64,000 nt of DNA from NCBI GenBank assembly GCA_045546375.1, contig JAZQCR010000128.1, positions 192-64,191 of the forward strand, read 5' to 3'. Numbering within the stretch: position 1 is the stretch's first letter; each line of letters opens with the position of its first letter. Positions 9,504 through 64,000 of this stretch are shown here, in pieces. The notes under the pieces were generated by a model that did no database searches, had not been told where the DNA came from, and saw nothing but the letters and a program-made list of their open reading frames with translations. Origin of the DNA: Eubacteriales bacterium. Its GTDB lineage: Bacteria > Bacillota > Clostridia > Oscillospirales > CAG-272. The position numbers and the translations under genes are program-made.

Positions 9504-9515
9504 GAGGAAGAGAAA

Positions 9516-9854: not shown

Positions 9855-9887
9855 CATAAAGAATATTGATAGGAAAGAACGAGGTAA

Positions 9888-10115: not shown

Positions 10116-10165
10116 TGAGTAGCTCTGTTTGAAAGCATAGAAGAATCAAAGAAAGTACGAGGTAA

Positions 10166-10396
10166 ATGAATATGTTAAATAAGATCAAGAATAAGGTAAA
10201 CGCTATGGCAATTCGCGCAAAGAGCGTAATCGAAAACAAGAAGGCGGAGGGCTACGTTGATTCCGGTGTAAAGATACTCATCGCAGTAGTTATCGGAGCA
10301 CTGCTGCTCAGTCTGCTGTACACCCTCTTCAATACTACCATCATGCCTACCGTTACCAATAAGGTAACCGAGCTCTTCAGCTACAGCGGAACCTGA
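10166..10396 (+). CDS. Flp-type pilin candidate, paralog 2
   Basis: A near-duplicate of 9888..10115 with the same leader and helix. The sequences diverge mainly in the last 15 residues. Confidence 0.6.
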   Translation: MNMLNKIKNKVNAMAIRAKSVIENKKAEGYVDSGVKILIAVVIGALLLSLLYTLFNTTIMPTVTNKVTELFSYSGT

Positions 10397-47224: not shown

Positions 47225-47232
47225 TATTAGCC

Positions 47233-48123
47233 ATGGGTCGTAGATTTACAGCGCAAGAGCTTGAGTATTCAAGAAAAACAGATCTAGCAGCTATGCTATT
47301 ATCCAAAGGAGCAGCTCTGAAACGATGCGGCTCCGAATATCAATGGAACAATAATGGAGAAAAGGTGAGCATCCGTGGCAACCTTTGGTACAGTCATTAC
47401 AGACAACGAGGCGGAGATACTATTTCCTTTGTCAGAGAGTATTATAATAAGTCTTTTCCCGAGGCAATAGAATATCTTTTGAATAGTGAGTCGGCTCATA
47501 TAAGTCAAGGAGAGGCGAATCGCCGAAATGAAACGCCATTCATGCTACCAAAGAGATACAGTAATATGAATCGTGTGTTTGCTTATCTGATCAATGAAAG
47601 AGGCATAGACAGAGACATACTACGGGAATTCGTTTATCATAATATGATATATGAGTCAGAGGATCATCATAACGCAGTATTCGTTGGATACGATCTGCGG
47701 GGAAGGACACTGCATGCGCATAAGCACTCAACCGGTAGGAAAGGTACGTACAAAATGACTGTGAGCGGTAGCCAAGCTGAATTTGCTTTTCATCTCTACG
47801 GAACGGGAGATGAGCTATATTACTTCGAGGCGCCAATAGATCTCTTATCATACATAACAATGCATCCAAATAATTGGAGAAGCAATACATATGCGGCGGC
47901 TTGTTCGGTTTCGGACAAGCTGCTTTTTAGATGCTTGAAAGATAAGCCGGAGATAAAGAAAGTTTATCTGTGCTTTGATAACGATACTGCCGGGCAAAAT
48001 GCAGCGGAGCGTATATCTAAACAATTAGAAATTTTGAGGATAGACTGTGAGATACTTGTGCCCGTCAATAAGGATTGGAATGAGGATCTGCTGGAAAAAA
48101 GAAAGGAGCATTCGAATGAATAA
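47233..48123 (+). CDS. DUF3991 plus Toprim domain protein (primase/topoisomerase-like)
   Basis: Toprim acidic motif YLCFDNDTAGQNAAERI. N-terminal region LWYSHYRQRGGDTISFVREY. This is the typical partner of VirD4 in Gram-positive ICEs. Confidence 0.7.
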   Translation: MGRRFTAQELEYSRKTDLAAMLLSKGAALKRCGSEYQWNNNGEKVSIRGNLWYSHYRQRGGDTISFVREYYNKSFPEAIEYLLNSESAHISQGEANRRNETPFMLPKRYSNMNRVFAYLINERGIDRDILREFVYHNMIYESEDHHNAVFVGYDLRGRTLHAHKHSTGRKGTYKMTVSGSQAEFAFHLYGTGDELYYFEAPIDLLSYITMHPNNWRSNTYAAACSVSDKLLFRCLKDKPEIKKVYLCFDNDTAGQNAAERISKQLEILRIDCEILVPVNKDWNEDLLEKRKEHSNE

Positions 48124-49894
48124 CCCACTCTTACTTATTGTTGTAGGCGCTATAATGCTCGCCGTACTTGGTGTAATATCTGTGCTTGACAGGGTGTATA
48201 ACCTGAACAGTATTAAGTCAAAGACTGTAGGTGACGGTCAGCACGGCTCTGCTAGATTTGCGACCAAGTGCGAACTTAAAAAGACATATAAGTACGTACG
48301 CTTTGAGCCGAAGGTGTGGCGAAGGAAAGCCAAGTGCGGAGACCTTAATTTGCCGCAAGGCGTGATAGTGGGGTGTAATGGATCCAAGAAAAACTGTGTG
48401 GCTATGGTGGACACGGCAGACGTTCATACCATGATGATCGGTGCGGCAGGTTGCGGTAAAACTGCGTATTGGTTGTATCCCAATCTTGAGTATGCCTGCG
48501 CCTCGGGTATGTCGTTTCTTACCACTGACACCAAGGGAGATCTGTATCGTAATTACGGAAATATAGCCAAAGAGCACTATGGTTATGACGTGGCTGTCAT
48601 CGATCTGCGTAATCCTACCAGGTCTGATGGAAACAATTTATTACACTTAGTGAATAAATATATGGATGAGTATAAAGCAGAACCGAGCAATATTAACGCT
48701 AAAGCAAAGGCGGAGAAGTACGCGAAGATCATCGGCAAAACTTTAATATATGGGGATGGGGATTCATCCTCATATGGACAGAACGCTTTCTTCTACGATG
48801 CCGCCGAAGGACTTATGACGGCGGCTATACTGCTGGTTTCGGAATATGCTCTTCCGGAGCAAAGACATATTATCTCAGTGTTCAAACTTATTCAGGATCT
48901 TTTTGAGCCATCGGGAGTGCAGGGCAAGAATAGCTTTCAGTTATTGATGTCAAGGTTGCCTGAGAATCATAAGGCGCGGTGGTTGGCAGGTGCCGCTCTT
49001 AACGCCAGCGATCAAACAATGTCGTCTGTAATGTCTACGGCATTATCAAGGCTTAATGCGTTCCTTGATAGTGAGCTAGAACAGGTTCTTTGCTTTGAAA
49101 CAGCCATCGATGCAGAGAAGTTTTGCTCTCAAAAGTGCGCTATATTCGTGGTGCTTCCCGAAGAGAATCCTACTACGTATTTTATGGTATCACTTCTGCT
49201 ACAACAGCTTTACAGAGAGATACTCACCGTAGCTGATGAGAATGGAGGAGCTCTCGAAAACAGAGTTATGTTTTATATGGACGAGTTTGGAACCTTGCCG
49301 GCAATCAATTCAGTAGAAATGATGTATTCTGCATCAAGATCCAGACGCCTTAGTTTAGTCAGTATCATACAGTCATATAAGCAGCTTGAAAAGAACTACG
49401 GGAATGAGGGCGCGGCAATTATACAGGATAACTGTCAGATAACGATAGCGGGAGGGTTTGCACCTACTAGCGGCACTGCAGACGTTGTATCAGAAGCTTT
49501 GGGAGACAGAACTATTATGTCGGGGTCGGTTACTAAGTCAAAGAATAATCCTTCGCAAACGATGCAGATGCTACAACGTTCGCTTATGAGTGCGGACGAG
49601 CTGAAGACTATGCCGAAGGGGACGTTCGTTGTTATGAAGACGGGAGTACACCCGTTCATATCTAAGCTTAAGCTGTTCTTTGAATGGGGAATAGATTTTG
49701 ATTGCGAGCCTTATACGATTGTAGATAAAGGAGCTCGATCTGTGTCTTATGCCAACCGTGAGATGATAGAGTATGCGGTAATGGCACAGACTCCCAAAAG
49801 CCGTGGTGAGCACGCCTTTGGTGAAGTTAAACGCAAGGCAAAGCCACGCAGTAAAAAAAGAACCGAAGAAGCAAAAGTGGTAGTGAAAACATAG
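48116..49894 (+). CDS. VirD4/TraG-family type IV coupling protein
   Basis: An N-terminal TM helix (LLLIVVGAIMLAVLGVISVL), Walker A MIGAAGCGKTAYW and Walker B FYMDEFG. The ATG at 48116 follows the RBS GAAAGGAG and overlaps the upstream stop (ATGAATAA). Confidence 0.9.
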   Translation: MNNPLLLIVVGAIMLAVLGVISVLDRVYNLNSIKSKTVGDGQHGSARFATKCELKKTYKYVRFEPKVWRRKAKCGDLNLPQGVIVGCNGSKKNCVAMVDTADVHTMMIGAAGCGKTAYWLYPNLEYACASGMSFLTTDTKGDLYRNYGNIAKEHYGYDVAVIDLRNPTRSDGNNLLHLVNKYMDEYKAEPSNINAKAKAEKYAKIIGKTLIYGDGDSSSYGQNAFFYDAAEGLMTAAILLVSEYALPEQRHIISVFKLIQDLFEPSGVQGKNSFQLLMSRLPENHKARWLAGAALNASDQTMSSVMSTALSRLNAFLDSELEQVLCFETAIDAEKFCSQKCAIFVVLPEENPTTYFMVSLLLQQLYREILTVADENGGALENRVMFYMDEFGTLPAINSVEMMYSASRSRRLSLVSIIQSYKQLEKNYGNEGAAIIQDNCQITIAGGFAPTSGTADVVSEALGDRTIMSGSVTKSKNNPSQTMQMLQRSLMSADELKTMPKGTFVVMKTGVHPFISKLKLFFEWGIDFDCEPYTIVDKGARSVSYANREMIEYAVMAQTPKSRGEHAFGEVKRKAKPRSKKRTEEAKVVVKT

Positions 49895-50570: not shown

Positions 50571-51893
50571 TTATGCGGTCGCATCTTCATATAATTGCAC
50601 TGGGCTTTTAATAGGAAGAGCTATATGGACACAGAAATGATGTTCTTCCTCAAAAAAATCAATGAAGCCATTTGCTTCAGTTACGATTTTTCTCATGCTT
50701 TTTATGCCGTAGCCGTGAATCTCTTTTTGAGTTTTAGTTGATATAAAAAGCGGATTATTTTTGATAATTGATTTGCTTATGCGATTTTTGCATATTACAT
50801 TTTGATAGTTATTATTAATGAAAAACTTAACTTCGAGGATTTTTTCATCGTGCTTTAATGCTTCTTCAATAGCGTTGTCTAAAAGATTTCCAAAAAGCGA
50901 AGCTAAATCAAACTCGTTAATGTTTGATAAGTTTGAGCATTCTCCGGTAACGAGAAATGTTATGTTAGGGTGGGCCGAGATCTTGGCATTTATAATGTAA
51001 TCGAGCATGCGATTATTCGTATGAATAATAGATGCAGACTTATTTAATTCAAGTTCTGTATTATCAATATAGTTATTAACGTCATCCAATTGTTTTTTTG
51101 TTATAAGCTGCTTTAAGCCGATTAAGTGTTGTTTAAAGTCATGGCGGAGGGTTTTGAGTTGTTGGTATAAGTTCCCCAATTCTGCATAGTTTTTTTGCTC
51201 CAACTCGCTTTGAAGTTTTAAAACTTCTAATTCGGTTTTAGCTTGGACGGTTTGGGTTAATTTTATAAACAGTAGTAAGGAAATCAGATTTAGCGCCGCT
51301 AGCCCCAAAACAGAGATTATGATTTGGTTGAAAAATGATGACAATGAATAGGTCAATCCAATTACCATAAATGTATAAAGAACAAATACAGTCATTAAAG
51401 GAGCAACAATATATAAAATCAAGTCCATTAATCTAAATTTGAGGCTAGTTGCGAAAAACCTTAAAATTAGCATAAGTGTGGCGGAAATAATTATTTTACA
51501 ACAAATAACATATAAATATCTTTCCATTGTTGCGATTGAAAACAAATCATTCAAACTCATGGAAAAAATATAACTAAATAAAAATGATAGTATTGTTGCG
51601 ATTATGATAAGTGTTACTTCAAAAATAATGGGTCCAAGAATCTTTGTTGCCCACGTTCCCGTTTTTACTAAAAAAGAGCAGAAGAGTAAAATTCCAAAAA
51701 TAATTACGGACTGTAAAAAAGAAAATACAGATATATACAAATATATTGTTGATACGGCAAAACATAATAATGTACCAATAGTTGACGGTATGATATTATC
51801 TCCTACTTTACCATTATTCAGCTTTATAACAAAGAAAACACCTAGCCAAGCATCAAAAAGGTTAGCCGATAATTCGAAAAGAAATGATGTCAT
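50571..51893 (-). CDS. AgrC-like (HPK10) membrane sensor histidine kinase
   Basis: About 6 N-terminal TM helices, H-box LKTLRHDFKQHL, N-box LFGNLLDNAIEE and G-box GYGIKSMRKIV. Confidence 0.85.
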   Translation of the reverse strand: MTSFLFELSANLFDAWLGVFFVIKLNNGKVGDNIIPSTIGTLLCFAVSTIYLYISVFSFLQSVIIFGILLFCSFLVKTGTWATKILGPIIFEVTLIIIATILSFLFSYIFSMSLNDLFSIATMERYLYVICCKIIISATLMLILRFFATSLKFRLMDLILYIVAPLMTVFVLYTFMVIGLTYSLSSFFNQIIISVLGLAALNLISLLLFIKLTQTVQAKTELEVLKLQSELEQKNYAELGNLYQQLKTLRHDFKQHLIGLKQLITKKQLDDVNNYIDNTELELNKSASIIHTNNRMLDYIINAKISAHPNITFLVTGECSNLSNINEFDLASLFGNLLDNAIEEALKHDEKILEVKFFINNNYQNVICKNRISKSIIKNNPLFISTKTQKEIHGYGIKSMRKIVTEANGFIDFFEEEHHFCVHIALPIKSPVQLYEDATA

Positions 51894-51899: not shown

Positions 51900-52619
51900 T
51901 TACCTCATCCGCATATATTTTACATATTCCCCGATAAATAATGGACGGCATTGCCTAGATACGGTCAATTTTTCGCCAGTTGTTAACTCTATAATGTTGT
52001 CTTGAATTTGGGAAATATATTTCATGTTAATTAACGTACCAGAGTTGACTTTTATAAATCCATAGTCATGTAAATCCGCCTCCAAACGGTGAATTGTTGT
52101 TCTATAACGATGAATGATGTTTTTGCAATGAATGGAAAGGTAATTGCTTTCTTTTTCTTTTATAATGTATACGATATGTGATACTTTTACAGGTGTGCAA
52201 TTGTTGTAATTGGATATATCTATATACTTTTCGTTTTTAGATAATTTGTCTATTGCTGCTAATAATGCTTCAGGCAAATATGCCTCATAACTGCTTTTAC
52301 AAAGAAAACGAAACGGACTAAACCTGATTGAATAATACACTTGATTTTCGTAATTAGAAATGAAAATCAAGCAGATATCCGGCCAGTATTCCTGACATTG
52401 TTGAGCAATTTCAAATCCGTTTATTTCTGGCATTGATATGTCCAAAAAGAGAATATCAACTGAATTATTTTGCAAATAATCAAGAAGGGATTTGGGCTCT
52501 GGAAAATACTGAAAAATGAATTCTTTATCAGCATAGGTGCTTTGAGATATTATGCTTTTAATCTGATTAGTTAATTGATAACCGAAAATCTTATTGTCAT
52601 CACAGATAATAATCTTCAT
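51900..52619 (-). CDS. LytTR-family response regulator (AgrA/VirR-like)
   Basis: Receiver domain MKIIICDDN...DILFLDISMPEINGFE. The C-terminal LytTR-type domain reads VKVSHIVYIIKEKESNYLSIH...FIKVNSGTLINMKYI. Confidence 0.9.
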   Translation of the reverse strand: MKIIICDDNKIFGYQLTNQIKSIISQSTYADKEFIFQYFPEPKSLLDYLQNNSVDILFLDISMPEINGFEIAQQCQEYWPDICLIFISNYENQVYYSIRFSPFRFLCKSSYEAYLPEALLAAIDKLSKNEKYIDISNYNNCTPVKVSHIVYIIKEKESNYLSIHCKNIIHRYRTTIHRLEADLHDYGFIKVNSGTLINMKYISQIQDNIIELTTGEKLTVSRQCRPLFIGEYVKYMRMR

Positions 52620-52795
52620 ATTTTCTCCAGGTAAAGATCGATTTTATATTATTATAATAACATATTTTTTAAAAATGTACAAGAGAATTACGTTTAGCGA
52701 GAGTAGCGTGTATGAACAATTATGGTATTTTCTAGTGGTATAATACTGAAAAACCAATGCAATTTGTAGTAATATAATTGTGGATGGTGATTAGC

Positions 52796-53140
52796 ATGAA
52801 AGTATTTGGTACAAGATTGAAATTGTTGCGTGAAAAACATAATCTTACGCAGCTTGCGCTTAGCACGAGACTTGGAATGGCACAAGAGTCAATTAGCGCA
52901 TATGAAAGGGACAATAATACACCCAGCATTGAAGTGTTAAAAGAGATTGCTGATTATTTCAATGTAAGCGCTGATTATTTGTTAGGTATTGATGACCTAG
53001 AAGTTAGAATAAACGAACATACTTTGGATGCGTTCGAGGTAACTTTATTAAGAAATTTCAGAATACTTCCGCAAATGCAAAAAGAATTGCTTGTTAAGAT
53101 TTCTGCGAATATGGTGGAGCTATATCATCAGCAAAGATAA
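52796..53140 (+). CDS. XRE-family HTH regulator
   Basis: MKVFGTRLKLLREKHNLTQLALSTRLGMAQESISAYERDNNTPSIEVLKEIADYFNVSADYLLG. An extended -10 (TGGTATAAT, 52736-52744) lies upstream. Confidence 0.8.
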   Translation: MKVFGTRLKLLREKHNLTQLALSTRLGMAQESISAYERDNNTPSIEVLKEIADYFNVSADYLLGIDDLEVRINEHTLDAFEVTLLRNFRILPQMQKELLVKISANMVELYHQQR

Positions 53141-53194: not shown

Positions 53195-53323
53195 TTACTT
53201 CATCAGTTTTTTGAGTTCAGCAGGTTCTTTTGCCTGGTGCTGTCCCCACTGTGAAGCTGCTCCGGCTGCCTTTTTTGCTGCAGCAAGAGCCACGCTAGCA
53301 AACGCTTTAGAGATGAGTTTCAT
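53195..53323 (-). CDS. agrD: AgrD-like autoinducing-peptide precursor (42 aa), absent from the ORF track
   Basis: My reverse-complement translation gives MKLISKAFASVALAAAKKAAGAASQWGQHQAKEPAELKKLMK. The RBS AAAGGAGA lies 7 nt upstream. The layout is an amphipathic leader, a core, and a charged tail with P-x-E-L spaced as in known AgrDs. It lies immediately downstream of agrB with a 17-nt overlap. Confidence 0.7.
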   Translation of the reverse strand: MKLISKAFASVALAAAKKAAGAASQWGQHQAKEPAELKKLMK

Positions 53324-53903
53324 TAGTGGATCTCCTTTCTATATAATTTTTAATTATTCCGATTGGCACCATAACGAGAACTGCAACAATCGTAAATAAA
53401 ATTATTTTATAATAATCACAATTTATTAAGTACATAATTGTACAAATAAGTATTAATCCTGCGAGGAATGCAAGAGATATTAGCTTGCATTCTTTTTTTT
53501 GCTTTTTGTCCAATGGTTTATACTTGTTTTCAACAGGACAAAGCAAACTTAGTATACATGAACCTACTATACCTGTAATTAGTATAGACAAAACGGAAGG
53601 ATTCGAATTATTGGCAATAAAAGCTACGGTACTAAATGTAAAAAACATAGATAAATTGCATACAAGGTAGGTATTTGCATGATATCCGCCACAGTACATT
53701 CTTATGGGTATGAACGTAAGTAAAAATAACAGTGAATCAACAATGTTAAAGAAAACAAAGCCGGCAATAAATACAATGCACATTCCAACAAACGAGGATA
53801 CTGAAATTTCTACACCGTATTGATAAACATTTACTAGAGTAGGATCAATTATTTGTCTACTTGCCCATGAAATAGCCAGTTGTTTGGATATTTTTTTTAT
53901 CAT
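53307..53903 (-). CDS. agrB: AgrB-family AIP-processing membrane peptidase
   Basis: Polytopic membrane protein with IPIRMYCGGYHANTYLVCN. The His and the Cys 7 residues later have the same spacing as the catalytic H77/C84 of S. aureus AgrB. Confidence 0.9.
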   Translation of the reverse strand: MIKKISKQLAISWASRQIIDPTLVNVYQYGVEISVSSFVGMCIVFIAGFVFFNIVDSLLFLLTFIPIRMYCGGYHANTYLVCNLSMFFTFSTVAFIANNSNPSVLSILITGIVGSCILSLLCPVENKYKPLDKKQKKECKLISLAFLAGLILICTIMYLINCDYYKIILFTIVAVLVMVPIGIIKNYIERRSTNETHL

Positions 53904-53966: not shown

Positions 53967-53998
53967 GGTGTATTTTGCAAGTAAATTGGTTTAATTGG
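53967..53998 (-). promoter_or_regulatory. Phased direct repeat (candidate LytTR site) in the agrBD promoter
   Basis: On the minus strand, CCAATTAAACC (53998-53988) and CAAAATACACC (53977-53967) start 21 bp apart. TATAAT (53937-53932, minus strand) lies 29 nt downstream. Confidence 0.55.
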
Positions 53999-54090: not shown

Positions 54091-54122
54091 CCAAATACCC
54101 CTAAATTCGAACAATTTACACC
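54091..54122 (+). promoter_or_regulatory. Phased direct repeat (candidate LytTR site), divergent from the agrBD site and facing the PK-like operon
   Basis: CCAAATACCCC (54091-54101) and CAATTTACACC (54112-54122). TATTAT at 54152-54157 lies 29 nt downstream, and there is also a TATAAT at 54135-54140. Confidence 0.55.
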
Positions 54123-54243
54123 AACAACGAGTTATATAATTAGTTTTATGATATTATTTCAATACATATTATTAGTGCTTTATCTTGTTTAGGCTGATAG
54201 AGCAAGTAGCTTCTTAATTCGATAACATAGGAGAAATGTTGAT

Positions 54244-55248
54244 ATGAGTGAGTTTGATTTGATAGCAACGATAGGTGCCAAAATTACTAATGTTCAAGAT
54301 GTTCAGAGAATAATTGAATATGGATTTAATCATTTAAGATTTAATTTTTCTAAATATGATAAAAATCTTGAGGATAGAGTTAATATGATCCGCTGTTTGA
54401 AGGATTTATATGAGAATGACATAAAAGTATTGATTGACTTACCATATCCAGGCAAAAAAGCTAGAATATATCACAATAAGAATTACTTTGATATTATAAC
54501 TGGTCAAGAGTTGGAAATTGTCTCAGATATTGTTAGAAAAGAGAGCGAGCGATTTGTAACAGATTTGCCCTCAATCGGACGCTTTGTCCAAAAGGATACG
54601 ATTATTGTTTATTCAGATGGAGAAGCTTTATTAAGGGTAATAAAAGTAATTGATGTTAATACCATTTTGGTGAGAGCCGAATCTGATTTCTTCTTTAGAA
54701 ATGGGAAGTCGCTTAGTTTTGATTATCCTAAACGTGGTCACATGCTTGAATATAAATTTGTTGATATTATTAGAGATATACGGCCAAATGAAATTGCATT
54801 GTCCTTTGTAGAAAATTCTGAAGATATACGTTCCTTTAAAATGATTGGATCTAATTGTATGAACGGTATGACAATTTTAAGTAAAATTGAAACACAGAGC
54901 GGAATAGATCATATAGACGATATTTGCCGAAACTCCGACGTGATTATTGGTCGAGGAGATATGAGCATTAATACGGATATACATAAATTGTATCAAAACC
55001 AAAAATACATTGTAAAAAGTGCAAAAAAATGCGGACGCAATTGTTATATAGCAACTGGAATTTTGAATTCGTTGACGACTCAACACTTTCCAACACAAGC
55101 AGATATCATCGATTTGTCCGTTATTATCAATATGCGCCCTAAAGGAATCATATTAAATGCGGAGGTTGTTTGGAAAAGACCTGAAATGGTTTTAAAGACA
55201 ATAACTGAGGTAAAAGAAACGTTGGAGGCTGAGGGGATATACAATTGA
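54244..55248 (+). CDS. Pyruvate-kinase-like TIM-barrel protein lacking the PK C-terminal domain
   Basis: Colinear PK blocks: IATIGAK...GFNHLRFNFSKY (compare RLNFSHG), VLIDLPYPGKKAR (compare LDTKGPEIR), ALSFVENSEDI, ILSKIETQSGI (the KIE block), IIGRGDMSIN (compare ARGDLGVE) and QKYIVKSAKKCGRNCYIATGILNSL. The protein ends after the barrel at 334 aa. Confidence 0.65.
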   Translation: MSEFDLIATIGAKITNVQDVQRIIEYGFNHLRFNFSKYDKNLEDRVNMIRCLKDLYENDIKVLIDLPYPGKKARIYHNKNYFDIITGQELEIVSDIVRKESERFVTDLPSIGRFVQKDTIIVYSDGEALLRVIKVIDVNTILVRAESDFFFRNGKSLSFDYPKRGHMLEYKFVDIIRDIRPNEIALSFVENSEDIRSFKMIGSNCMNGMTILSKIETQSGIDHIDDICRNSDVIIGRGDMSINTDIHKLYQNQKYIVKSAKKCGRNCYIATGILNSLTTQHFPTQADIIDLSVIINMRPKGIILNAEVVWKRPEMVLKTITEVKETLEAEGIYN

Positions 55249-55315
55249 TATAATTTGATTTGTTAATGAGTGCAGGGAAGTGCCCTAAAATGTATGTTGT
55301 TGAAGGCGGGAAATT

Positions 55316-56923
55316 ATGTTGAAAAGTAATTTAAGGATTGATCGTTGCGTGGAGAGGTATTTAACTAAATTGTTTTATAGGGAACAGTATGGTGACCTCA
55401 TTTATTCGAGCAAGTTGGAGTATGTGTTTTTAGAGAATAGGAGTTTAAGTAAATATTTACATAATTTAAAAGATGTAGAGGAAGATTTTGAGTTACAAAA
55501 ATCACGCAAAGAAACTATGGATAATGTGCTAGTTTTGGCTAATACATTGCTGTGTGAAAATGGTATAACTCCCATATGTTTTAAAGGGAGTATTTTAGCT
55601 CAACTCGTATATCATAATCCTAGTGCGCGTGTTTTTAATGATGTTGATTTGGTAGTTGAACAAGAGGATTTCGAAGACACTTTAAAAATCCTAAAATTGA
55701 ATGGCTTTGAACAAGAATCTTTATACGATGCTCATCACATAAGGCTAAATAAAGATAATGTTCGTGTTGAAATACATACTTGTTTCTATCATCCTAAGAA
55801 TAATATAATTTTTGTTCCAAGAGAAGAAGATATAATTTATGAAACCATCAAAGGGTGCTCAATAAAAACACTTGATTTGACAAGCTTATTGATATGTTTA
55901 TTGTACCACCAGTATGTCCATTGCGTAAATGATTCGTTGTTTTCAGACTATAGGTTTTTGACCCATCAATATGTTTATTGCTTTGCTAGATCTTTGTTTA
56001 GGTATTATGATATTGCTTTGTTGATAAATAAATATAACCAACAAATCCGATGGGAGGATTGTTATGATGCTATAAGGCAAGCAGAGTTGAGCATTGAATT
56101 TAAAATGATGGTTCAAGAGTTTAACAGTATATTTACTGATCTATTGCCACACGAATTCATTGATCTTGTTATGCATAAAAACTATGTGCAGAATGGTGAA
56201 TACAATGTATACAATTACATATACCACAATTACTCATCTAAAGAAAGGTTATATAAAATTGATGATGCTGTAACTGATGCGTGTAATAGCATTTATACTA
56301 CACCATTAGTAATTAATTGCTACAAGAATAAATCTGTTGAACATATATTTCATATCGATGAATATTCCGGGAATATATTGAACCCTAGCGGGTCGTATTC
56401 TATTGGCGCAGTAAAACCGCAGAATAGTGATGATCTCTCATTTGATTTTAACATATGGCTATCTTCAAATATGCTAAATTTTGGTTTTTCTGTTAAGAGT
56501 GACAGGGTTTGTTCAATTCATCGGGGGGCCTTAATAGACAATCGTGATATGATTAACAGGTGTGACAATGTTGGTATTGTAATCGTGCCCGGGAATGGAC
56601 GATATAAGAAAAGTGACCTTTTTGTTCTGCTGGAAGAAACAGAAGAAGGAGTGGTTGTGCCAAGGGTATATGATGACTGGGTTGACATTACGGACAAAGT
56701 TAATGTTGGATTACAAGTAACAGCGTGTGGCTATGATTTGGATTTGAGTATACCCATAGAGTATCTTGGCATTTCATCGAAAAAAGGAGATCATTTTATC
56801 ATGGATTTATCTGTAAGCGATTGTGATGAATGCGCAAATAGAAAGTCTACTTTAGCATTATCTGTATATAAATGTGAAAGTGGGCAATTTAAGTATTATG
56901 CGAAGGTGCAAATAGCTGAATAG
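55316..56923 (+). CDS. PF14907-like 'uncharacterised nucleotidyltransferase' fused to a C-terminal beta-rich (CBM9-like?) domain
   Basis: CFKGSILAQLVYHNPSARVFNDVDLVVEQEDFEDTLKILKLNGF matches the KG...R...D(I/V)DLLV...G signature. The C-terminal ~200 aa end in GYDLDLSIPIEYLGISSKKGDHFIMDLSVSD. Confidence 0.6.
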   Translation: MLKSNLRIDRCVERYLTKLFYREQYGDLIYSSKLEYVFLENRSLSKYLHNLKDVEEDFELQKSRKETMDNVLVLANTLLCENGITPICFKGSILAQLVYHNPSARVFNDVDLVVEQEDFEDTLKILKLNGFEQESLYDAHHIRLNKDNVRVEIHTCFYHPKNNIIFVPREEDIIYETIKGCSIKTLDLTSLLICLLYHQYVHCVNDSLFSDYRFLTHQYVYCFARSLFRYYDIALLINKYNQQIRWEDCYDAIRQAELSIEFKMMVQEFNSIFTDLLPHEFIDLVMHKNYVQNGEYNVYNYIYHNYSSKERLYKIDDAVTDACNSIYTTPLVINCYKNKSVEHIFHIDEYSGNILNPSGSYSIGAVKPQNSDDLSFDFNIWLSSNMLNFGFSVKSDRVCSIHRGALIDNRDMINRCDNVGIVIVPGNGRYKKSDLFVLLEETEEGVVVPRVYDDWVDITDKVNVGLQVTACGYDLDLSIPIEYLGISSKKGDHFIMDLSVSDCDECANRKSTLALSVYKCESGQFKYYAKVQIAE

Positions 56924-57004
56924 ACAGAAAGCAGTCGATGTTAATGAGTATAACACGGATAATGATAAAGCATTGTTATTTGGCGAATTAAGAGGAAGAT
57001 AGCA

Positions 57005-58825
57005 GTGAAAGAATATAAGGACAAACCGAAGTATAACTTGTGGCAGAATACCGTGCATATATTTGGCCTTGCCTGGCGAGAGCAAAAAGCGGTAATATCC
57101 ACATGCTTTGTATCACCGGGTCTCACTACTCTTACAAGGCTCACGGATATATACATCGCCCCCGTTATACTTGCTTGCATTGAACGAGGCTATTCGCTGA
57201 TTGAGCTGTTATGGACGATATCCTTCTTTATTGGTACATCGATGCTCTTGCGCGCTTTGTACGCATTTAATAGTTCCAGAGTAGGCTTTACCAGAAAAAC
57301 GCTAGTGCAGAGGGTGAGGGTCAAGCTGATAGAAAAAATCGAGACTACTTCGTATGCTAACATAGATGATCAGACGATTCTCAATAAGATGTATGCTGCC
57401 AAGTGTGCATTGGGCGATTATGAGAAGTATTGGAGCAGGGTCAGCATGACATGCACGAATATCCTTGGCTTTTTCGCCTATCTGTGGGTGTTGCGCTCCC
57501 TTAATATTTTGCTGGTAGTCGTGACTGTGGGTACCACCCTTTTTAGTACATATATGACAAAGTGTCTGAATGACTGGCTGTATGGGCAGAATCCTGAGAT
57601 GGCGAGATATGAGCAGATTATCGGTCATGTGTTTGAGCGTTCGCAGAGTGTCGCGGCGGCGAAGGATATTCGTATCTTCGGTATGAAGGAATGGCTCATG
57701 GGTATTTACGAGCGCACTCTGCTTTTATACCATGCACTGATCGTACGGCACAACAGCAAGCATTTACTTATGAGGCTGATGGATCAGGCACTGTTTCTTT
57801 TGCGCAACGGCGTGGCGTATGCGTACCTGATCACCGTGTCATTGAACGCAGGATGGTCTGCGTCCAGCTTTGTCCTATACTTTGGGGCGATAACGGGATT
57901 TGTCAGCTGGGTCAATGGCTTTCTAGGCGGTTTCACCGAATTGCAGGCGTGCAGTAACAAGATTAGCGCCGTGAGAGAATTTATGGAGCTTGATGAGCCC
58001 TTCCGGTTTGAGGACGGTGAGCCCCTCCCACTTCCACATGATGGAAAGTGCGAGATAACCTTGCGGGGTGTATGTTACCGCTATCCGGGCGCTGCTGAGG
58101 ACACTCTGCGCGATATAGATCTGACCCTGCGCATGGGAGAAAAGATAGCTGTCGTAGGGCTTAACGGAGCAGGAAAGACTACGCTTATAAAGGTTCTTTG
58201 CGGTCTTTATGATCCCAGCGAGGGCGAGGTTCTCTTAAACGGCGTAGATATCCGAAGATATAATCGCCGTGATTATTATAACTATTTTTCTGCCGTCTTT
58301 CAGAAATTTTCTCTGCTTGAGGGCACGTTGGCAGAGAATATCGCACAGAGTGTTGCCGATATTGACCTTCCCCGTGTGGAGTGGTGCGCCCACTTGGCTG
58401 GGTTAGAGGATAAGATAGCTTCTCTGCCGAATGCCTATGATACCCACCTCGGAAAGACTGTTTACGAGGACGGGATAGAACTCTCGGGCGGCCAGACCCA
58501 GCGGCTGATGCTCGCTCGTGCATTATACAAAGATGCACCCGTACTACTCTTAGATGAGCCCACTGCGGCGCTTGACCCGATAGCGGAAAACGAGATATAT
58601 CAGCGTTATAACGATCTGGTTCAGGGGCGCTCTGCTGTATATATATCCCACCGCCTTGCCTCTACACGCTTTTGCGACCGAATAGTGTACTTAGAGAATG
58701 GTCGCATAGCAGAGTCGGGAACGCACGATGAGCTTTTAGCGGCAGGTGGTAAATATGCAGAACTGTTTGAGATACAGGCACGCTATTACAGAGATGGAGG
58801 GGAAGATGTGCAAGACAGAAAATAA
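57005..58825 (+). CDS. ABC exporter, fused permease and ATPase (half-transporter 1)
   Basis: Six-TM N-terminal half, Walker A GLNGAGKTT, signature LSGGQTQR and Walker B LLLDEPT. GTG start. Confidence 0.9.
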   Translation: MKEYKDKPKYNLWQNTVHIFGLAWREQKAVISTCFVSPGLTTLTRLTDIYIAPVILACIERGYSLIELLWTISFFIGTSMLLRALYAFNSSRVGFTRKTLVQRVRVKLIEKIETTSYANIDDQTILNKMYAAKCALGDYEKYWSRVSMTCTNILGFFAYLWVLRSLNILLVVVTVGTTLFSTYMTKCLNDWLYGQNPEMARYEQIIGHVFERSQSVAAAKDIRIFGMKEWLMGIYERTLLLYHALIVRHNSKHLLMRLMDQALFLLRNGVAYAYLITVSLNAGWSASSFVLYFGAITGFVSWVNGFLGGFTELQACSNKISAVREFMELDEPFRFEDGEPLPLPHDGKCEITLRGVCYRYPGAAEDTLRDIDLTLRMGEKIAVVGLNGAGKTTLIKVLCGLYDPSEGEVLLNGVDIRRYNRRDYYNYFSAVFQKFSLLEGTLAENIAQSVADIDLPRVEWCAHLAGLEDKIASLPNAYDTHLGKTVYEDGIELSGGQTQRLMLARALYKDAPVLLLDEPTAALDPIAENEIYQRYNDLVQGRSAVYISHRLASTRFCDRIVYLENGRIAESGTHDELLAAGGKYAELFEIQARYYRDGGEDVQDRK

Positions 58826-60674
58826 AATGAGCTTCATGAAAGCAATTTCACTTAACTTCCGTGCGGTTCGTATGTGGTATAGCGCCTGTCCGATGTTGGC
58901 TTTTTCCGACATTGTCGGAACTGTGCTTGGCGCTGTTTCTCCGAGCATCACCATCTGGCTGTCCGCGCGTATCGTGGACGAGCTGGCAGGAGAGCGAGAT
59001 CCCGATCGGCTGTTGATGCTTGTCCTGCTTACTCTTGGCAGTCACCTTTTGGTCACGCTCTTTACCATTGGCCTTGAGCGTTTTACTTGTTATTTTGCTA
59101 CGGCCATGGGCTTTTATCGTGAGAAGCTTTATGCCGGTAAATTACTGGCTATGGATTTTTGCCGTATGGATGATCAGAGGACTCATGATTTGTATACGCA
59201 GGTGAAGCAGCACGATGAATGGGGCTACTCCATAGAGAGCGCGGTGAGTCATTTCAGCGGTTTACTTCGTTCTTTTTCGGGGATAGGCGGAGTTATCGCG
59301 CTTTGCTTCAGTATGTTCACTTCTCGTGTACCTAATAGCGCAGGCGCGCTAACCGTACTTAACAACTCATTTTTCGTTCTTGGGATAGGAGCGGTTATGT
59401 TTGCGGTAACGTCACTGGCGCCAAGGTTTGAGAACAAGGGTCGAGCGTATTGGAATCGGTATGCAGAGGAAGCGAGGCTTGAAAATAATCTTAACCGTTT
59501 TTACGGTGATACCTTTCCCCACGACCGCTCCCGTGCGGCAGACATCCGCCTATACCATCAGGACAGAGTGAGCGGATACTATGTCGAGCGTAGCGATGTT
59601 TATACCGCCACCTCAAAGATGGCCACATATGCGCGCGGCCCCATTACTTTTTACAGGATACTGTCGGTCGTCTTTTCTTACTGTTTTATAGGCATCACGT
59701 ATTTTATCGTTTGCCTGAAGGCATGGGCAGGAGCATTTGGTGTAGGTCATGTTACTCAATATATAGGTGCTCTTACAGGACTTTCTCGCTGTATTACGGA
59801 ATTTATTGGTTCTATAGGTCAGATGCGTAATCTCGCACCTTTTCTCGAAACATTTTTTGAGTTCAAGGCTATACCGAATTCTATGAAGCAGGGGAGCAGG
59901 GAGATCGTGAAGGACGAGAATGATTATGAGATAGAGTTCCGTGACGTTTCCTTCAAGTATCCGGGTAGTGATATATGGGCTCTGCGCCATGTTAATATCC
60001 GATTCAGTTCGGGGCAGAGGCTGGCTGTGGTGGGCAAGAACGGAAGCGGAAAGACCACCTTCATAAAGCTCCTTTGCCGTATGTACGATCCCACAGAGGG
60101 CGTGATATTTTTAAACGGCACAGATATCCGTGAATATGACTACGAAGAGTATCTGTCTGTCTTCTCGGTGGTATTTCAAGATTTCAAACTGTTCTCCTTG
60201 CCTTTGGGTGAAAATGTGGCGGCGTGCTCTGATTATGACCGAGACAAGGTGGAGCGACTGCTCAGGCAAGCGGGCTTCGGCGAGAGGCTGACCTCTATGC
60301 CCGACGGGATAGACACGTACCTCTATAAGGATCTGTCGGAAACCGGTGTGGAGATATCAGGCGGAGAAGCGCAGAAGATTGCTCTGGCTAGGGCACTCTA
60401 CAAGGACGCGCCCTTTATCATCCTGGACGAGCCTACCGCCGCACTTGATCCTGTAGCTGAGCACGAGATATACTCTTGCTTCAACGAGCTGGTGGAGACT
60501 AGGACTGCTATTTATATCAGCCATCGCTTATCCTCCTGCCGTTTCTGCGATACTATTGCCGTTTTTGCGGATGGTAGGATAGTCGGGGAGGGAAGTCACG
60601 AGATTTTGCTCTCTAATGAAGAGGGAGAATACTACAAGCTCTGGTACGCTCAGGCACAATATTATGCTTCTTAA
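58806..60674 (+). CDS. ABC exporter, fused permease and ATPase (half-transporter 2)
   Basis: Walker A GKNGSGKTT, signature ISGGEAQK and Walker B IILDEPT. The ATG at 58806 is preferred because it follows GGAGGGG; the ORF-track start at 58746 lies deep inside the upstream gene. Confidence 0.9.
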   Translation: MCKTENKMSFMKAISLNFRAVRMWYSACPMLAFSDIVGTVLGAVSPSITIWLSARIVDELAGERDPDRLLMLVLLTLGSHLLVTLFTIGLERFTCYFATAMGFYREKLYAGKLLAMDFCRMDDQRTHDLYTQVKQHDEWGYSIESAVSHFSGLLRSFSGIGGVIALCFSMFTSRVPNSAGALTVLNNSFFVLGIGAVMFAVTSLAPRFENKGRAYWNRYAEEARLENNLNRFYGDTFPHDRSRAADIRLYHQDRVSGYYVERSDVYTATSKMATYARGPITFYRILSVVFSYCFIGITYFIVCLKAWAGAFGVGHVTQYIGALTGLSRCITEFIGSIGQMRNLAPFLETFFEFKAIPNSMKQGSREIVKDENDYEIEFRDVSFKYPGSDIWALRHVNIRFSSGQRLAVVGKNGSGKTTFIKLLCRMYDPTEGVIFLNGTDIREYDYEEYLSVFSVVFQDFKLFSLPLGENVAACSDYDRDKVERLLRQAGFGERLTSMPDGIDTYLYKDLSETGVEISGGEAQKIALARALYKDAPFIILDEPTAALDPVAEHEIYSCFNELVETRTAIYISHRLSSCRFCDTIAVFADGRIVGEGSHEILLSNEEGEYYKLWYAQAQYYAS

Positions 60675-60744: not shown

Positions 60745-60772
60745 CGCCAACACCAATATGATGGTGTTGGCG
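60745..60772 (+). terminator. Hairpin after the ABC genes
   Basis: CGCCAACACC (60745-60754) pairs with GGTGTTGGCG (60763-60772). The T-tract is weak. Confidence 0.45.
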
Positions 60773-60822
60773 ACCAATATTTCTCTATTGATTAACAAGA
60801 ATTACATTATATAATAGTTTTG

Positions 60823-60863
60823 TTAAGGTTCATTGCAAGTACTGGCATTGCAATGAACCTTAA
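60823..60863. promoter_or_regulatory. Perfect 15-bp inverted repeat upstream of the WYL regulator gene
   Basis: TTAAGGTTCATTGCA (60823-60837) pairs with TGCAATGAACCTTAA (60849-60863). It may be an operator or a terminator. Confidence 0.4.
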
Positions 60864-60942
60864 AATATATAATTAATCGAAACATGAACTGTGCAGTAAC
60901 TTAGCTAACAGGGAAAAGAGCTGATTCATATAGGGGGAAATA

Positions 60943-61899: not shown

Positions 61900-62235
61900 A
61901 TTGCTTGTATTTATATATAACTGTTGAAAAGCTATGATTCAGTCATTGTATCATGGCTTTTATATTTAATGGAAAAGAATGGCGGTAAAACTAATCTGGT
62001 AAGTTGCTTTGAAAAAACTAAATTGAAAACGTGATATTAAACTTAGGTTTTTTGTGGTGACCTTAGGAATAAAATAGTGCGCAAAGCAGCATTTATTGGG
62101 ACTATTTAGTTAACTGCGTTTTCTCAAGTTTGATCCTCTTAATGAGAGGTAATCGTTATTAATTCATTATTCCTTTGTCATTGTTTATGGAAATATCTAA
62201 CATACTTAATAATTGCTTTGTTAGCAATATGGTTA

Positions 62236-62267
62236 CCAAATACCCCCGAAAAACAACAAATTATCCC
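62236..62267 (+). promoter_or_regulatory. Phased direct repeat (candidate LytTR site) inside the ORF-free region, site 1
   Basis: CCAAATACCCC (62236-62246) and CAAATTATCCC (62257-62267). TATATT at 62295-62300 lies 27 nt downstream. Confidence 0.45.
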
Positions 62268-62637
62268 AACATTCGTTTTTTGGTTTTATTACGGTATATT
62301 GTATGTAGTAAACAATATGTATTCTGTCGAAATGGGGCCTAGTTTTGATATATTGTGCATGAATTGAATAATCATTTATAAGTATAACTATCTGTGATTA
62401 TAGTTGACGAGTGGCGGTTATGCTTTTTGAACATGTTGGACAAATGTTTTTTGGATATTTTATGTGAAATTCTTTCGCCAGTTTGAATTTTGAATGATTT
62501 TGGTGTTTACCAAGAAATTCGTACAACATAGATATTAGATTTAGAATTAATGTAGTTCACGGCGAAATGCAGTTTTGATACTAACTGATTAATTGGTTTT
62601 TTAATGGCATATATTCATGAAAGTATTATTGTCTTGA

Positions 62638-62669
62638 CTAGATACACCTAAAATCATACCAAATACACC
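62638..62669 (+). promoter_or_regulatory. Phased direct repeat (candidate LytTR site) inside the ORF-free region, site 2
   Basis: CTAGATACACC (62638-62648) and CCAAATACACC (62659-62669). TAAAAT at 62698-62703 lies 28 nt downstream, and there is also a TATAAT at 62679-62684. Confidence 0.45.
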
Positions 62670-63028
62670 ATAATTGGTTATAATTAATAAATAATGGTAA
62701 AATTATCACAAAGAAATGATTGTAAGATCAAATTTAATATGTAATTCATTTGCAACTTAACCGTAAATGCTGTTTATCGATAGTTGAAGTATAGTGATAT
62801 GAAAATTATATTGTGGTTGGATTTAACTTTAAAACTATAGCAGGAAACAATTTTGGAAAATACAAAAGCATAAAAGCGATATGTACATATTCATGAAATT
62901 GACTACAAATGCGCCTGGCTTTTAAGGTAGGGGCGCTCATTCTAAAGGATGTTAGGTTGATCGGCTTTATTCAATCTGGTTAATAATCGCAAGTATAGTT
63001 GTTCTAAAAGAAAAGGGAGAAAAAGAAA

Positions 63029-63379
63029 ATGCGAAAACAAACTTTATTATTAGAAGAGTTGTGTAAAACGTCAGACTTAGAGAAGATCCAAGTTTACATA
63101 AATAAAATTATGAGTATTAGGGGCTTCAACTCGCAAAGCCCTCAAGATAAGATGCTGTTATTAGTTGAGGAGGTAGGAGAACTTGCGAAAGCTCTTCGAA
63201 AGGTTGAGGCAGGGTTGCCTATTGACTATAACAGAATATGCAATTATGATACGGTAGAGAGCGAAATAGCGGATATATTTATTGTATTGCTGTCACTTTG
63301 TGACGTATTGGGTATTGATTTATTTAATGCATTTATCGAAAAGGAACGTGAAAATGGTACTCGAAAATGGGCACATTGA
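63029..63379 (+). CDS. MazG-like all-alpha nucleoside triphosphate pyrophosphohydrolase
   Basis: LLLVEEVGELAKALRK (the EExxE motif) and VESEIADIFIVLLSLCDVLGIDL (the ExxD motif). The RBS AAAGGGAGA lies upstream. Confidence 0.75.
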   Translation: MRKQTLLLEELCKTSDLEKIQVYINKIMSIRGFNSQSPQDKMLLLVEEVGELAKALRKVEAGLPIDYNRICNYDTVESEIADIFIVLLSLCDVLGIDLFNAFIEKERENGTRKWAH

Positions 63380-63875
63380 TTTGACTCCACGGCAAGCTTT
63401 GCTAGTTTTGTGGAATGCACTATTAAGTCAATCACAGGATGCCAATTTAACTTTGAATAACACCATTTTACTAATGGAGCGTCTTCGCATTCTCGATGGA
63501 AATTTCCAAATTAGCAAAATTAGTTATAATCAGTTGTACAATGCGATGATTATAAAACCTATGATTCATAGGTTTTATAATCAGATGACCCAAAACATAT
63601 ATTATAGTATTTTAAAAATAGAGAGCCATTTTTCGGGCGATCCGAGTCGTATATTCGATTCTTCAAATGAAAGTCAAATTAAAAGTAATTTGATGATTTT
63701 TAGAGGTATTGGTATGCATAAGGCAGAAATAGCTACTACTGTTGTGAAATTATATCAAACAGGAAAAAAGTCAAATGCGAATTCTATAAAACGGTGCGCA
63801 AAAAGTTGCCCCTCATTAATAAGCACGCTGAACTTAGAATTTTGTCTATTGGACAAAGTGGGTGAATTGGGGTGA
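63354..63875 (+). CDS. Hypothetical protein (173 aa), possible helix-hairpin-helix element
   Basis: The ATG at 63354 overlaps the end of the MazG-like gene. LMIFRGIGMHKAEIATTVV looks like an HhH GIG motif, but the match is weak. Confidence 0.5.
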   Translation: MVLENGHIDLTPRQALLVLWNALLSQSQDANLTLNNTILLMERLRILDGNFQISKISYNQLYNAMIIKPMIHRFYNQMTQNIYYSILKIESHFSGDPSRIFDSSNESQIKSNLMIFRGIGMHKAEIATTVVKLYQTGKKSNANSIKRCAKSCPSLISTLNLEFCLLDKVGELG

Positions 63876-63879
63876 AATA

Positions 63880-64000
63880 ATGATTAATAAAGTGTTTTTT
63901 GATATAACCAAGTATTGCAATGCTTCTTGCGTATATTGTTTTACAGATTCTATAAAATTTGGTTCTGATAGTATTAATGAAATGTCTTGTTATAATATTA
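63880..64000 (+). CDS. Radical SAM enzyme, N-terminal fragment (truncated by the window end)
   Basis: My translation gives MINKVFFDITKYCNASCVYCFTDS..., which contains the CxxxCxxC [4Fe-4S] motif. The RBS GGGGTGA lies upstream. Confidence 0.75.
   Translation, partial: MINKVFFDITKYCNASCVYCFTDSIKFGSDSINEMSCYNI

Follow-up and report, generated by a model that had tools for sequence, protein, structure and literature searches.

What does a pyruvate kinase (PK) homologue without its regulatory domain do in an operon with a nucleotidyltransferase (NTase) and an exporter, beside a complete agr-type quorum-sensing unit? This question is raised by a 64,000-nucleotide stretch from an Eubacteriales bacterium of the CAG-272 lineage (assembly GCA_045546375.1, contig JAZQCR010000128.1, positions 192 to 64,191; hereafter the window), in which four co-directional open reading frames (ORFs), divergent from agrBD, are all present at the coordinates listed below. 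The answer that we put forward, tentatively and with somewhat less than even confidence, is that the PK-like enzyme uses phosphoenolpyruvate (PEP) to make a non-housekeeping triphosphate, that the NTase transfers a nucleotidyl or phospho-linked moiety onto an acceptor bearing a sugar, and that the ATP-binding cassette (ABC) proteins export the product.

54244 to 55248, plus strand: PK-like phosphotransferase gene, 334 aa (PF00224, AlphaFold2 [AF2] model)
55316 to 56923, plus strand: PF14907 NTase fused to a CBM9-fold beta domain, 535 aa
57005 to 58825, plus strand: ABC exporter half-transporter A (ABC-A; transmembrane domain [TMD] plus nucleotide-binding domain), 606 aa
58827 to 60674, plus strand: ABC exporter half-transporter B (ABC-B), ORF open from GTG 58746, likely start ATG 58827
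60745 to 60772, no strand assigned: candidate operon-end hairpin, G+C-rich, with an 11-bp stem, 70 nt past the last stop codon

The intergenic gaps of the operon are 67, 81 and about 1 nt, ribosome-binding sites could be read directly before genes 2 and 3 (NTase and ABC-A), and a terminator scan within the operon gave no convincing internal terminator; the hairpin at 60745-60772 likely marks its end. Between the operon end and a WYL regulator gene lies a near-perfect long inverted repeat, AAGGTTCATTGCAA…TTGCAATGAACCTT at 60822-60866, which may serve either as a further terminator or as an operator bound by the WYL protein. An earlier reading made from the sequence only had described the genes as a truncated PK-like enzyme, a PF14907 NTase with a CBM9-like fusion and a two-half ABC exporter, and these domain calls agree with our Pfam and Foldseek results.

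The sole Pfam match of the PK-like protein is the PK barrel PF00224 (2.4e-34, residues 5-294). With the NCBIfam PK equivalogs it scored 66-150 bits against cut-offs of 306-686 (137.8 against 306.4 for TIGR01064, and 149.5 against 432 for the best model, NF004491). In Foldseek, its AF2 model (pLDDT 90.7) superposes on PK structures over domains A and B with a TMq of 0.81-0.86, and the top 50 matches are PKs throughout. Like PK (EC 2.7.1.40; PF00224 plus PF02887; TIGR01064), the protein has a (beta/alpha)8 A domain and a B cap domain, but it lacks the C-terminal allosteric domain: there is no match to PF02887, the chain ends at residue 334, where the A domain ends, and its alignment to the host PK stops about 140 residues short of the end of the latter. 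The sequence-only reading had already noted the missing regulatory domain, and both the Pfam result and the A+B-only model confirm it. The host PK is a canonical enzyme of 476 aa, encoded on contig C28 of the same genome, which carries the motifs RLNFSHG, DTKGPEIR, KIEN, ARGDMGVE and ATQMLES and is 24% identical to the PK-like protein. Because of this separate canonical PK, we regard the PK-like gene as an extra paralogue and not as the glycolytic PK; together with the equivalog scores below cut-off, this upholds the earlier suspicion that the protein is unlikely to be glycolytic.

The catalytic site of PK is largely kept. Invariant across the 11 members of the PK-like family are R32, which aligns with the PEP-phosphate Arg of PK, N34 and D65 (cation-site Asn and Asp), K155 (B-domain Lys), K214 (catalytic Lys), E216 and D239 (the two Mg ligands) and T271 (proton-donor Thr). 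R32, K214, E216, D239 and T271 fall in the RLNFSHG, KIE, RGD and ATQ motif positions, so that the Arg, Lys, Glu, Asp and Thr of the PEP/Mg/phosphotransfer site of PK are all represented. RFNFSKY, KIE and GRGDMSIN are present as quoted in the sequence-only reading, which had stressed divergence at positions strictly conserved in true PKs. That claim holds for the motifs as such; part of the divergence, however, is known natural PK variation, and the core catalytic residues are kept. Relative to PK, SHG is changed to SK(Y/F), SFVR to SFVE, SGET is lost, and the DTKGPEIR loop is remodelled to DLPYPGKKARI. K+-independent PKs are known to carry Leu for Thr113 and to have lost Glu117, with Lys117 (PMC4284704, PMC8835810). 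The PK-like protein resembles such bacterial enzymes in having Leu at the Thr113 position and lysines in the 117 loop, but its assignment as K+-independent is only tentative, because gapped and ungapped alignments disagree on the residue at rabbit-PK position 117 (Lys72 or Gly70). Judged by these residues, the protein is most likely catalytically active, as an unregulated phosphotransferase that depends on PEP and has a changed acceptor pocket. The NxxH[GA]SD motif of nucleoside diphosphate kinase (NDK) was absent from every frame of the genome assembly, which, at an assembly completeness of 83%, is weak evidence. Should the cell really lack ndk, its conversion of nucleoside diphosphate (NDP) to nucleoside triphosphate (NTP) would depend on PK-type enzymes.

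Members of the PK-like family are rare. In 5.8e9 clusters, searching with a single sequence returned the same 11 members as searching with a profile made from the PK-like alignment, which added nothing to them, and scans of genome, metagenome and plasmid collections added several more. After duplicate removal 17 independent PK-like loci were counted, with family identities of 23-48%. No paper on PK homologues in such biosynthetic clusters was found in the literature. In 9 of the 17 loci the PK-like gene occurs with a PF14907 gene, the two being immediate neighbours in the window, L011 and L022, and in 4 further loci (13/17 in total) it occurs with a family of about 270 aa bearing an NTase-type GS…DxD motif. 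This second family gave no significant alignment with PF14907-type proteins (hhalign probability 1.8%), and the motif, along with weak PDB matches (E about 0.002), lends slight support to its NTase nature. Nucleotide- or triphosphate-handling genes are found in 14 of the loci, including thymidylate kinase (TMK)-, deoxynucleoside kinase (dNK)-, AAA_18- and NDK-like kinases, NUDIX, MazG, CYTH, VTC and His_Phos_1 proteins; ABC or MFS exporters are found in 12; and 11 contain radical S-adenosylmethionine (SAM) enzymes, mostly MoaA-like (TIGR02666, 1e-29 to 1e-67). For the radical SAM neighbours of about 315 aa, an identity as viperin was rejected, as they reached 47-72 bits with the viperin model (cut-off 180) and 100-225 bits with TIGR02666.

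The L034 locus presents a row of genes for a nucleoside 2-deoxyribosyltransferase, a dNK-like and a TMK-like kinase, one unknown protein, the PK-like enzyme, a methyltransferase and a CYTH protein, with an MFS exporter adjoining. By its gene content, this row reads as a series from base to nucleoside to nucleoside monophosphate (NMP) to NDP, in which the PK-like enzyme would take the NDP-to-NTP step. In most relatives, the PK-like and NTase genes form part of large clusters that also contain genes for radical SAM, acyl-carrier, adenylating and glycosyl-transfer functions, and several loci are on conjugative or insertion sequence-rich DNA. The sequence-only reading had proposed neighbourhood conservation as a check on its case, and the neighbourhood was found to be conserved in about 17 loci, so that the refuting condition which that reading had set for itself is not borne out. 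Taken together, the comparative context points to a product class of nucleotide or triphosphate chemistry rather than peptide chemistry.

One family member, a 339-aa protein with 33% identity, is encoded on plasmid pDC11_2 of Bacillus toyonensis DC11 (L040; NZ_CP103779.1 42238-43257), a bacterium available in culture. Its gene, annotated by the Prokaryotic Genome Annotation Pipeline (PGAP) as 'pyruvate kinase, glycolytic process', stands between a gene for a VTC-domain (triphosphate-tunnel) protein and those for a class V aminotransferase and a histidine phosphatase, with PqqD, CYTH and MFS genes nearby, and the glycolytic annotation is likely wrong. That label, the intact catalytic residues and the existence of a short PK model in NCBIfam (PRK06739, 352 positions) would suit a second, unregulated glycolytic PK isozyme whose neighbours are unrelated and share its direction by chance. 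We consider this explanation improbable in the extreme, because the genome already has its canonical PK, the equivalog scores are far under their cut-offs, and an extremely rare family keeps its neighbourhood in about 17 loci at 23-48% identity. Moreover, the PK-like genes differ from those of PK in that they always occur in mobile, cluster-like contexts and never beside glycolytic genes.

The partner enzyme matches PF14907 with 99.3 bits (gathering threshold 31.2; 3.6e-28, residues 57-258), and the residues of its motif K90-G91…D109-x-D111 are at least 90% conserved in 12 sequences. Its structural model (pLDDT 88.9) has a catalytic domain of the ANT(2'')/LnuA type, followed by a helical middle part and, at about residues 330-535, a beta domain. 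The N-terminal domain matches ANT(2'')-Ia (5cfu, 5kqj) and LnuA (4fo1) in fold (probability 1.0, TMt 0.50-0.58); this catalytic fold and the G…DxD motif are shared with ANT(2'')-Ia, LnuA and minimal NTases (TM1012), and the sugar-hydroxyl acceptor of ANT(2'')-Ia and LnuA is one that we count as a common feature. Sequence similarity to the ANT and Lnu enzymes is negligible, however (Lnu(C) matches weakly, with 17.8 bits against a cut-off of 300), and the window protein differs from them in its extra helical region, its CBM9-fold domain and its biosynthetic context.

For the beta domain, the top PDB matches in Foldseek were the CBM9 modules 7nwn, 1i82 and 7nwo (E 5e-8 to 3e-7, probability 1.0, TMt 0.64-0.66), and Pfam listed no CBM9 sequence profile for the protein at E up to 0.1. 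The guess of a CBM9-like domain in the sequence-only reading is thus right at the level of fold, and no sequence profile detects the domain. The C-terminal ~200 residues share the beta-sandwich fold of CBM9 from Thermotoga maritima Xyn10A (PDB 1i82), but with 13-14% identity, and the domain is cytoplasmic and fused to an NTase instead of being carried by a secreted glycoside hydrolase. The CBM9-type fold also carries haem in DOMON-like subunits (2ivf_C, 7b04_O). A full HMMER pass with the C-terminal 265 residues against 1.84e9 representatives matched 12 proteins, nearly all of which are NTase fusions, 509-535 aa long, that carry the domain in the equivalent place; the NTase-CBM9 fusion is nearly an orphan. 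A metagenome scan with the NTase found no relatives. One protein, P0016 (3042 aa), has 19 separate stretches that match residues 117-154 of the CBM9-like query, and a short motif of the domain is therefore repeated many times in this giant protein. The PF14907 proteins of L001, L003 and L004 (about 590-600 aa) have a Cys-rich N-terminal part (…ESVACGDY…CxxSRAMCNY…) that by eye resembles an IscU/NifU scaffold. Their genes come after those for a class V aminotransferase (cysteine-desulfurase-like) and a MoaA-like radical SAM enzyme, a setting that hints at sulfur chemistry in these loci.

By analogy, the nearest studied precedent for a kinase and an NTase acting around sugar-phosphate links is the PsmK/PsmN pair; PsmN, the single such NTase from lasso clusters to have been studied, is presumably a member of PF14907. 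The pseudomycoidin system of Bacillus pseudomycoides resembles the present one in combining a phosphotransferase, an 'uncharacterised nucleotidyltransferase' and an ABC exporter, with a sugar-phosphate link in its product (PMC6993621). There, PsmN needs two metal-binding Asp and adds a hexose onto the phosphate that the kinase has installed on a lasso peptide, acting only on the phosphorylated peptide (PMC6993621). PsmK, however, is HPr-kinase-like and not PK-like, PsmN has no CBM9-like domain, and the pair acts on a ribosomal lasso peptide, for which no core genes are present here. If the operon worked in the same style, the PK-like enzyme would phosphorylate Ser/Thr of a precursor or of an AgrD-derived peptide, the NTase would decorate it and the ABC proteins would export it. 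Such NTases are frequent in Firmicutes lasso clusters, L040 has its PqqD-family gene near the PK-like gene, and the two radical SAM enzymes encoded downstream of the operon carry SPASM domains and are peptide-maturase-like. We nevertheless find peptide tailoring very unlikely. No lasso cyclase, leader peptidase or RiPP recognition element (RRE) was found among the ORFs and Pfam matches of 50-64 kb or the next 16 kb, there is no PqqD gene in or next to the operon, and inspection of small ORFs in the operon gaps and in 61900-63030 gave no convincing precursor peptide, in agreement with the sequence-only reading, which had seen no obvious precursor gene. The link that the same reading drew to RiPP and lasso clusters accordingly reduces to an analogy at the family level. 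Furthermore, Pfam detects no C39 peptidase domain in either ABC half, the partners of the PK-like gene elsewhere are nucleotide kinases and triphosphate hydrolases rather than peptide-processing genes, and PK is not known as a peptide kinase.

Both ABC halves match ABC_tran (PF00005; 1e-31 for ABC-A and 1.6e-28 for ABC-B), and the alignment to MsbA-type proteins is full-length (residues 45-592). The Walker B and signature sequences are LLLDEPTAALD and LSGGQTQR in ABC-A, and IILDEPTAALD and ISGGEAQK in ABC-B, so that the Walker B Glu and the SGG signature, as well as the H-loop, are retained in both. ABC_membrane (PF00664) was not listed for either half at E up to 0.1, and the TMDs are therefore divergent. 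The alignment of ABC-B to L001_ABCb begins at residue 28 of the long ORF that opens with GTG 58746, for which reason ATG 58827 is the probable start of ABC-B. The window proteins score 653 and 370 bits with cluster-linked ABC proteins elsewhere, versus at most 222 bits with host paralogues.

The sole close relative of the NTase and ABC genes as a module is found in L015, where the NTase is 49-61% identical over its full length and ABC-A is 71% identical. In L015 the module follows genes for a phosphonopyruvate decarboxylase (Ppd; TIGR03297, 424.8 versus 312.5) and a homocitrate/isopropylmalate-synthase-like protein. This contig (ENA ERZ28759227 contig_10898, 1-10172) is a fold-back chimeric artefact, bases 2-7669 being a 99.2% inverted self-copy with frameshifted gene copies in one arm.

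The pairing of NTase and ABC genes (62% and 71% identity) next to unrelated biosynthetic genes in L015 fits an exchangeable module and thus favours a role in resistance or self-protection, as do the location of the window locus on a conjugative element, the match of the NTase fold to ANT(2'')-Ia (5cfu, 5kqj) and LnuA (4fo1), and the weak sequence match to Lnu(C). The NTase would then nucleotidylate a sugar hydroxyl of an antibiotic, self-made or a competitor's, which the ABC proteins would pump out; the PK-like enzyme would phosphorylate the compound or keep NTP supplied, and quorum sensing would bring protection at high density. We rate this as unlikely, since no resistance model reaches its cut-off (17.8 against 300 for Lnu(C)), no PK-like enzyme is known to act as a resistance kinase, and the large clusters of the relatives, with their radical SAM, acyl-carrier, adenylating and glycosyl-transfer genes, suggest synthesis and not resistance alone.

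L015 also bears on a PEP-derived phosphono or phospho pathway, in which the NTase-CBM9 protein would handle a small C2/C3 phosphonate or phosphate, by way of an NMP conjugate or of a LicD-like transfer of a phospho-group onto a glycan, the PK-like protein would stand in for the phosphonate enzymes as the PEP-using step of the window, and the ABC proteins would flip or export the product. The module of L015 comes directly after a Ppd gene whose product passes the TIGR03297 cut-off, and a survey of phosphonate clusters describes a PEP mutase (Ppm) flanked by a thymidylate kinase and a PF14907 NTase (PMC8942020); the window's island also has a thymidylate-kinase-like gene, and the PK-like protein keeps the PEP and Mg ligands. 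Against it, neither an intact PEP-mutase motif (EDKx5NS) nor a tblastn match to the L015 Ppd was found in the 83%-complete host genome. In addition, the annotation of the 17 PK-like loci contains no Ppm or Ppd, the PK-like protein matches PF00224 only, and L015 is itself chimeric, which together leave a phosphonate-type pathway quite unlikely in our estimate.

How the operon is switched on is suggested by the genes and repeats that lie around it.

50571 to 51893, minus strand: AgrC-like membrane sensor histidine kinase (GHKL), 440 aa, N-terminal half hydrophobic (PF14501 HATPase_c_5, 1e-18)
51900 to 52619, minus strand: AgrA-like response regulator, receiver plus LytTR (PF04397 1.6e-12, PF00072 1.2e-10)
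52778 to 53140, plus strand: XRE-type helix-turn-helix regulator between agrBD and the two-component genes (PF01381 HTH_3, 4.5e-16)
53195 to 53323, minus strand: AgrD autoinducer precursor, 42 aa (TIGR04223, 38 bits versus cut-off 19)
53307 to 53903, minus strand: AgrB peptidase/cyclase (PF04647, 2.7e-33)
53967 to 53998, minus strand: phased direct repeats facing agrB, AATTAAACC-N12-AAATACACC, read from the sequence
54093 to 54140, plus strand: candidate LytTR-activated operon promoter, with phased direct repeats AAATACCCC-N10-AATTTACACC at 54093-54122 and TATAAT at 54135-54140
62240 to 62267, plus strand: second phased-repeat copy, toward the MazG/radical SAM unit (pattern match)
62642 to 62684, plus strand: third phased-repeat copy, AGATACACC-N12-AAATACACC, with TATAAT at 62679-62684, candidate promoter of the downstream unit

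By domain matches the agr set is complete, with AgrB, AgrD, an AgrC-like kinase and a LytTR regulator as in staphylococcal and clostridial agr. The 340-bp region between agrB and the operon holds two back-to-back direct-repeat pairs, and it resembles the agr P2/P3 region in that repeat pairs with a phase of about 21 bp face both ways in one intergenic region. TATAAT starts 12 nt after the operon-facing pair. The pattern ATACMCC-N10-14-WWWTAYMCC has 4 matches in the window versus 0.00 expected (100 shuffles), the one before the operon being at 54095-54122, and AAATACMCC occurs 5 times versus 1.08 expected. A fourth phased-repeat match (48170-48199, minus strand) falls where the primase-like and the coupling-protein genes of the conjugation set meet; no obvious target is seen there, and the match is possibly due to chance. 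The layout of repeats and TATAAT resembles a LytTR-activated regulon, which makes induction plausible, and the operon is probably switched on by quorum sensing. The agr-type control proposed in the sequence-only reading is therefore credible, with four repeat matches where none are expected and one of them 12 nt upstream of the operon's TATAAT.

This unit differs from known agr systems in several respects: its output is an enzyme and exporter operon and not RNAIII, the XRE gene splits agrBD from the two-component genes, the whole is located on a conjugative element, and AgrD has Ser at the usual ring-Cys position (…GAASQWGQHQAKEPAEL…; …AASQWGQ, then HQAKEPAEL…) despite passing the curated cut-off. 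From the Ser at the ring position, a lactone autoinducer is predicted. Beside PK-like genes, agr genes occur in 3 of the 17 loci, which represent three separate lineages: the window; L008-10, with AgrD (…CIWIDGQPEVPEE…) and AgrB; and L030-31, with AgrD, AgrB, a kinase and a LytTR regulator. The AgrD peptides of L008 and L030 keep the usual ring Cys.

Downstream, a further set of genes may belong to the same programme.

63029 to 64000, plus strand: start of a possible companion unit, with a MazG-like NTP pyrophosphatase, an unknown 197-aa protein and a radical SAM/SPASM enzyme

The unit (contig C128 63220-67090 = L007 3121-6993) runs on past the window, where genes for another radical SAM/SPASM enzyme and for a thymidylate-kinase-like protein follow. 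It is AT-rich, its radical SAM/SPASM enzymes have 304 and 418 aa, and it is preceded by two copies of the operon-type phased repeats (62240, 62642). The unit may be co-regulated with the operon and may supply or trim the nucleotide. VakA, the viperin-associated kinase, is a weak match for the TMK-like protein (9e-10), and the resemblance of the radical SAM enzymes to prokaryotic viperin (pVip) models is generic only. The TMK-like copies of the window and L016 have only the P-loop in common, and the L032 copy is 27% identical to that of the window. As orthologues of the MoaA-like partners seen elsewhere, the downstream radical SAM enzymes were rejected, being SPASM-type with about 30% generic similarity. 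The arrangement recalls other pathways dedicated to modified nucleotides, notably the viperin-plus-kinase modules (pVip), in which dedicated NMP/NDP kinases feed a radical SAM enzyme and NTP pyrophosphatases are nearby. It differs from them in that PADLOC 2.0 gave no defence-model match for the PK-like protein or the NTase (the ABC matches were to generic ATPases), the radical SAM partners in other loci are of the MoaA type and fall short of the viperin cut-off, and the exporters and quorum sensing point to a secreted product and not to an intracellular antiviral.

The genetic setting was also analysed by composition. The GC content is 0.324 for the PK-like gene and 0.330 for the NTase gene, versus 0.484 and 0.489 for the ABC genes (GC at third codon positions 0.28-0.30 versus 0.53). 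With a host genome GC of 0.494, it is the AT-rich genes and not the ABC genes that deviate from the host: the agr, PK-like, NTase, WYL regulator and MazG genes have 30-36%, and only 0.6% of 1.8-kb genome windows are as GC-poor. The ABC genes exceed the enzyme genes in GC in every related locus examined, namely L015 (0.44 versus 0.31), L016, L023, L008, L011 and L001. The GC jump reported in the sequence-only reading is thus real, but the mosaic origin that it suggested is not borne out, because the step is common to all of these loci; the heterogeneity is old and moves with the cluster, and did not arise recently as a patchwork in this place. Directly upstream of the agr unit, at 45800-49894, there are genes for relaxase-like, Toprim primase-like and VirD4/TraG-like coupling proteins, and the contig, with a GC of 41.6%, lies below the genome (49.4%). 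A conjugative element therefore carries the region as a whole. RHS toxin cassettes adjoin the locus on this element.

According to the above-described analysis, the locus would be the output operon of an agr-type quorum-sensing unit on a conjugative element, a module that makes a triphosphate, then attaches a group, and has its own exporter. Given the conserved catalytic residues and the gene context, the PK-like enzyme would run normal PK chemistry, free of allosteric control, and move the phosphate of PEP to a non-housekeeping diphosphate, likely a modified NDP or an NDP-like compound, and so yield a triphosphate. The PF14907 NTase would use a triphosphate donor at its G…DxD site and transfer a nucleotidyl or phospho-linked group, with release of pyrophosphate, to a sugar-bearing acceptor held by the CBM9-fold domain. 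Finally, the heterodimeric ABC exporter with its two consensus ATP sites would expel the conjugate and so also protect the producer. The unit with the MazG-like enzyme, the two radical SAM/SPASM enzymes and the TMK-like protein may replenish or control the pool of nucleotides.

Several observations weigh against this scheme. Residues of the nucleotide pocket and of enolate protonation differ from PK (H77 to K37, SGET lost, SFVR to SFVE), so that a non-nucleotide acceptor is possible. In L015 the NTase and ABC genes stand beside phosphonate genes without a PK-like gene, and they could therefore be an exchangeable export or resistance module and not a partner of the PK-like enzyme. Subfamily membership of the PF14907 proteins varies from locus to locus, the window protein being BLAST-similar only to the N-terminal part of the L008 protein, and the CBM9-like domain is confined to about 10 known proteins. 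The window operon itself has none of the MoaA-like radical SAM, NUDIX and phosphatase genes seen with the PK-like gene elsewhere; the possible companion unit begins about 2.4 kb downstream of it, past the WYL regulator gene, and its genes have no orthologues in the related loci.

As a quorum-sensing-controlled biosynthesis and export locus, the system appears to be of a known kind, and what appears to be new is the enzyme pair and the recruitment of a PK. A broader proposal, rather unlikely in our view, is that PK paralogues without the C domain form a hitherto unrecognised class of PEP-dependent kinases that make non-canonical triphosphates, of nucleosides or of other organic compounds, in mobile biosynthetic clusters of Firmicutes; here the NTase-CBM9 enzyme would use the triphosphate for a conjugate of nucleotide-sugar type whose secretion quorum sensing would control. 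If this is true, PK would have been recruited to secondary metabolism as an unregulated, PEP-driven maker of triphosphates, a new role for a much-studied enzyme, and the short PK paralogue would be a simple genome-mining marker for cryptic nucleotide-type clusters. The locus offers a tractable entry to the chemistry of PF14907 and to a cytoplasmic CBM9-fold domain. For gut Clostridia, a new class of natural products and a new kind of agr output would follow, and the agr system of these organisms would gain a concrete enzymatic and export output that bears on the competition between gut bacteria.

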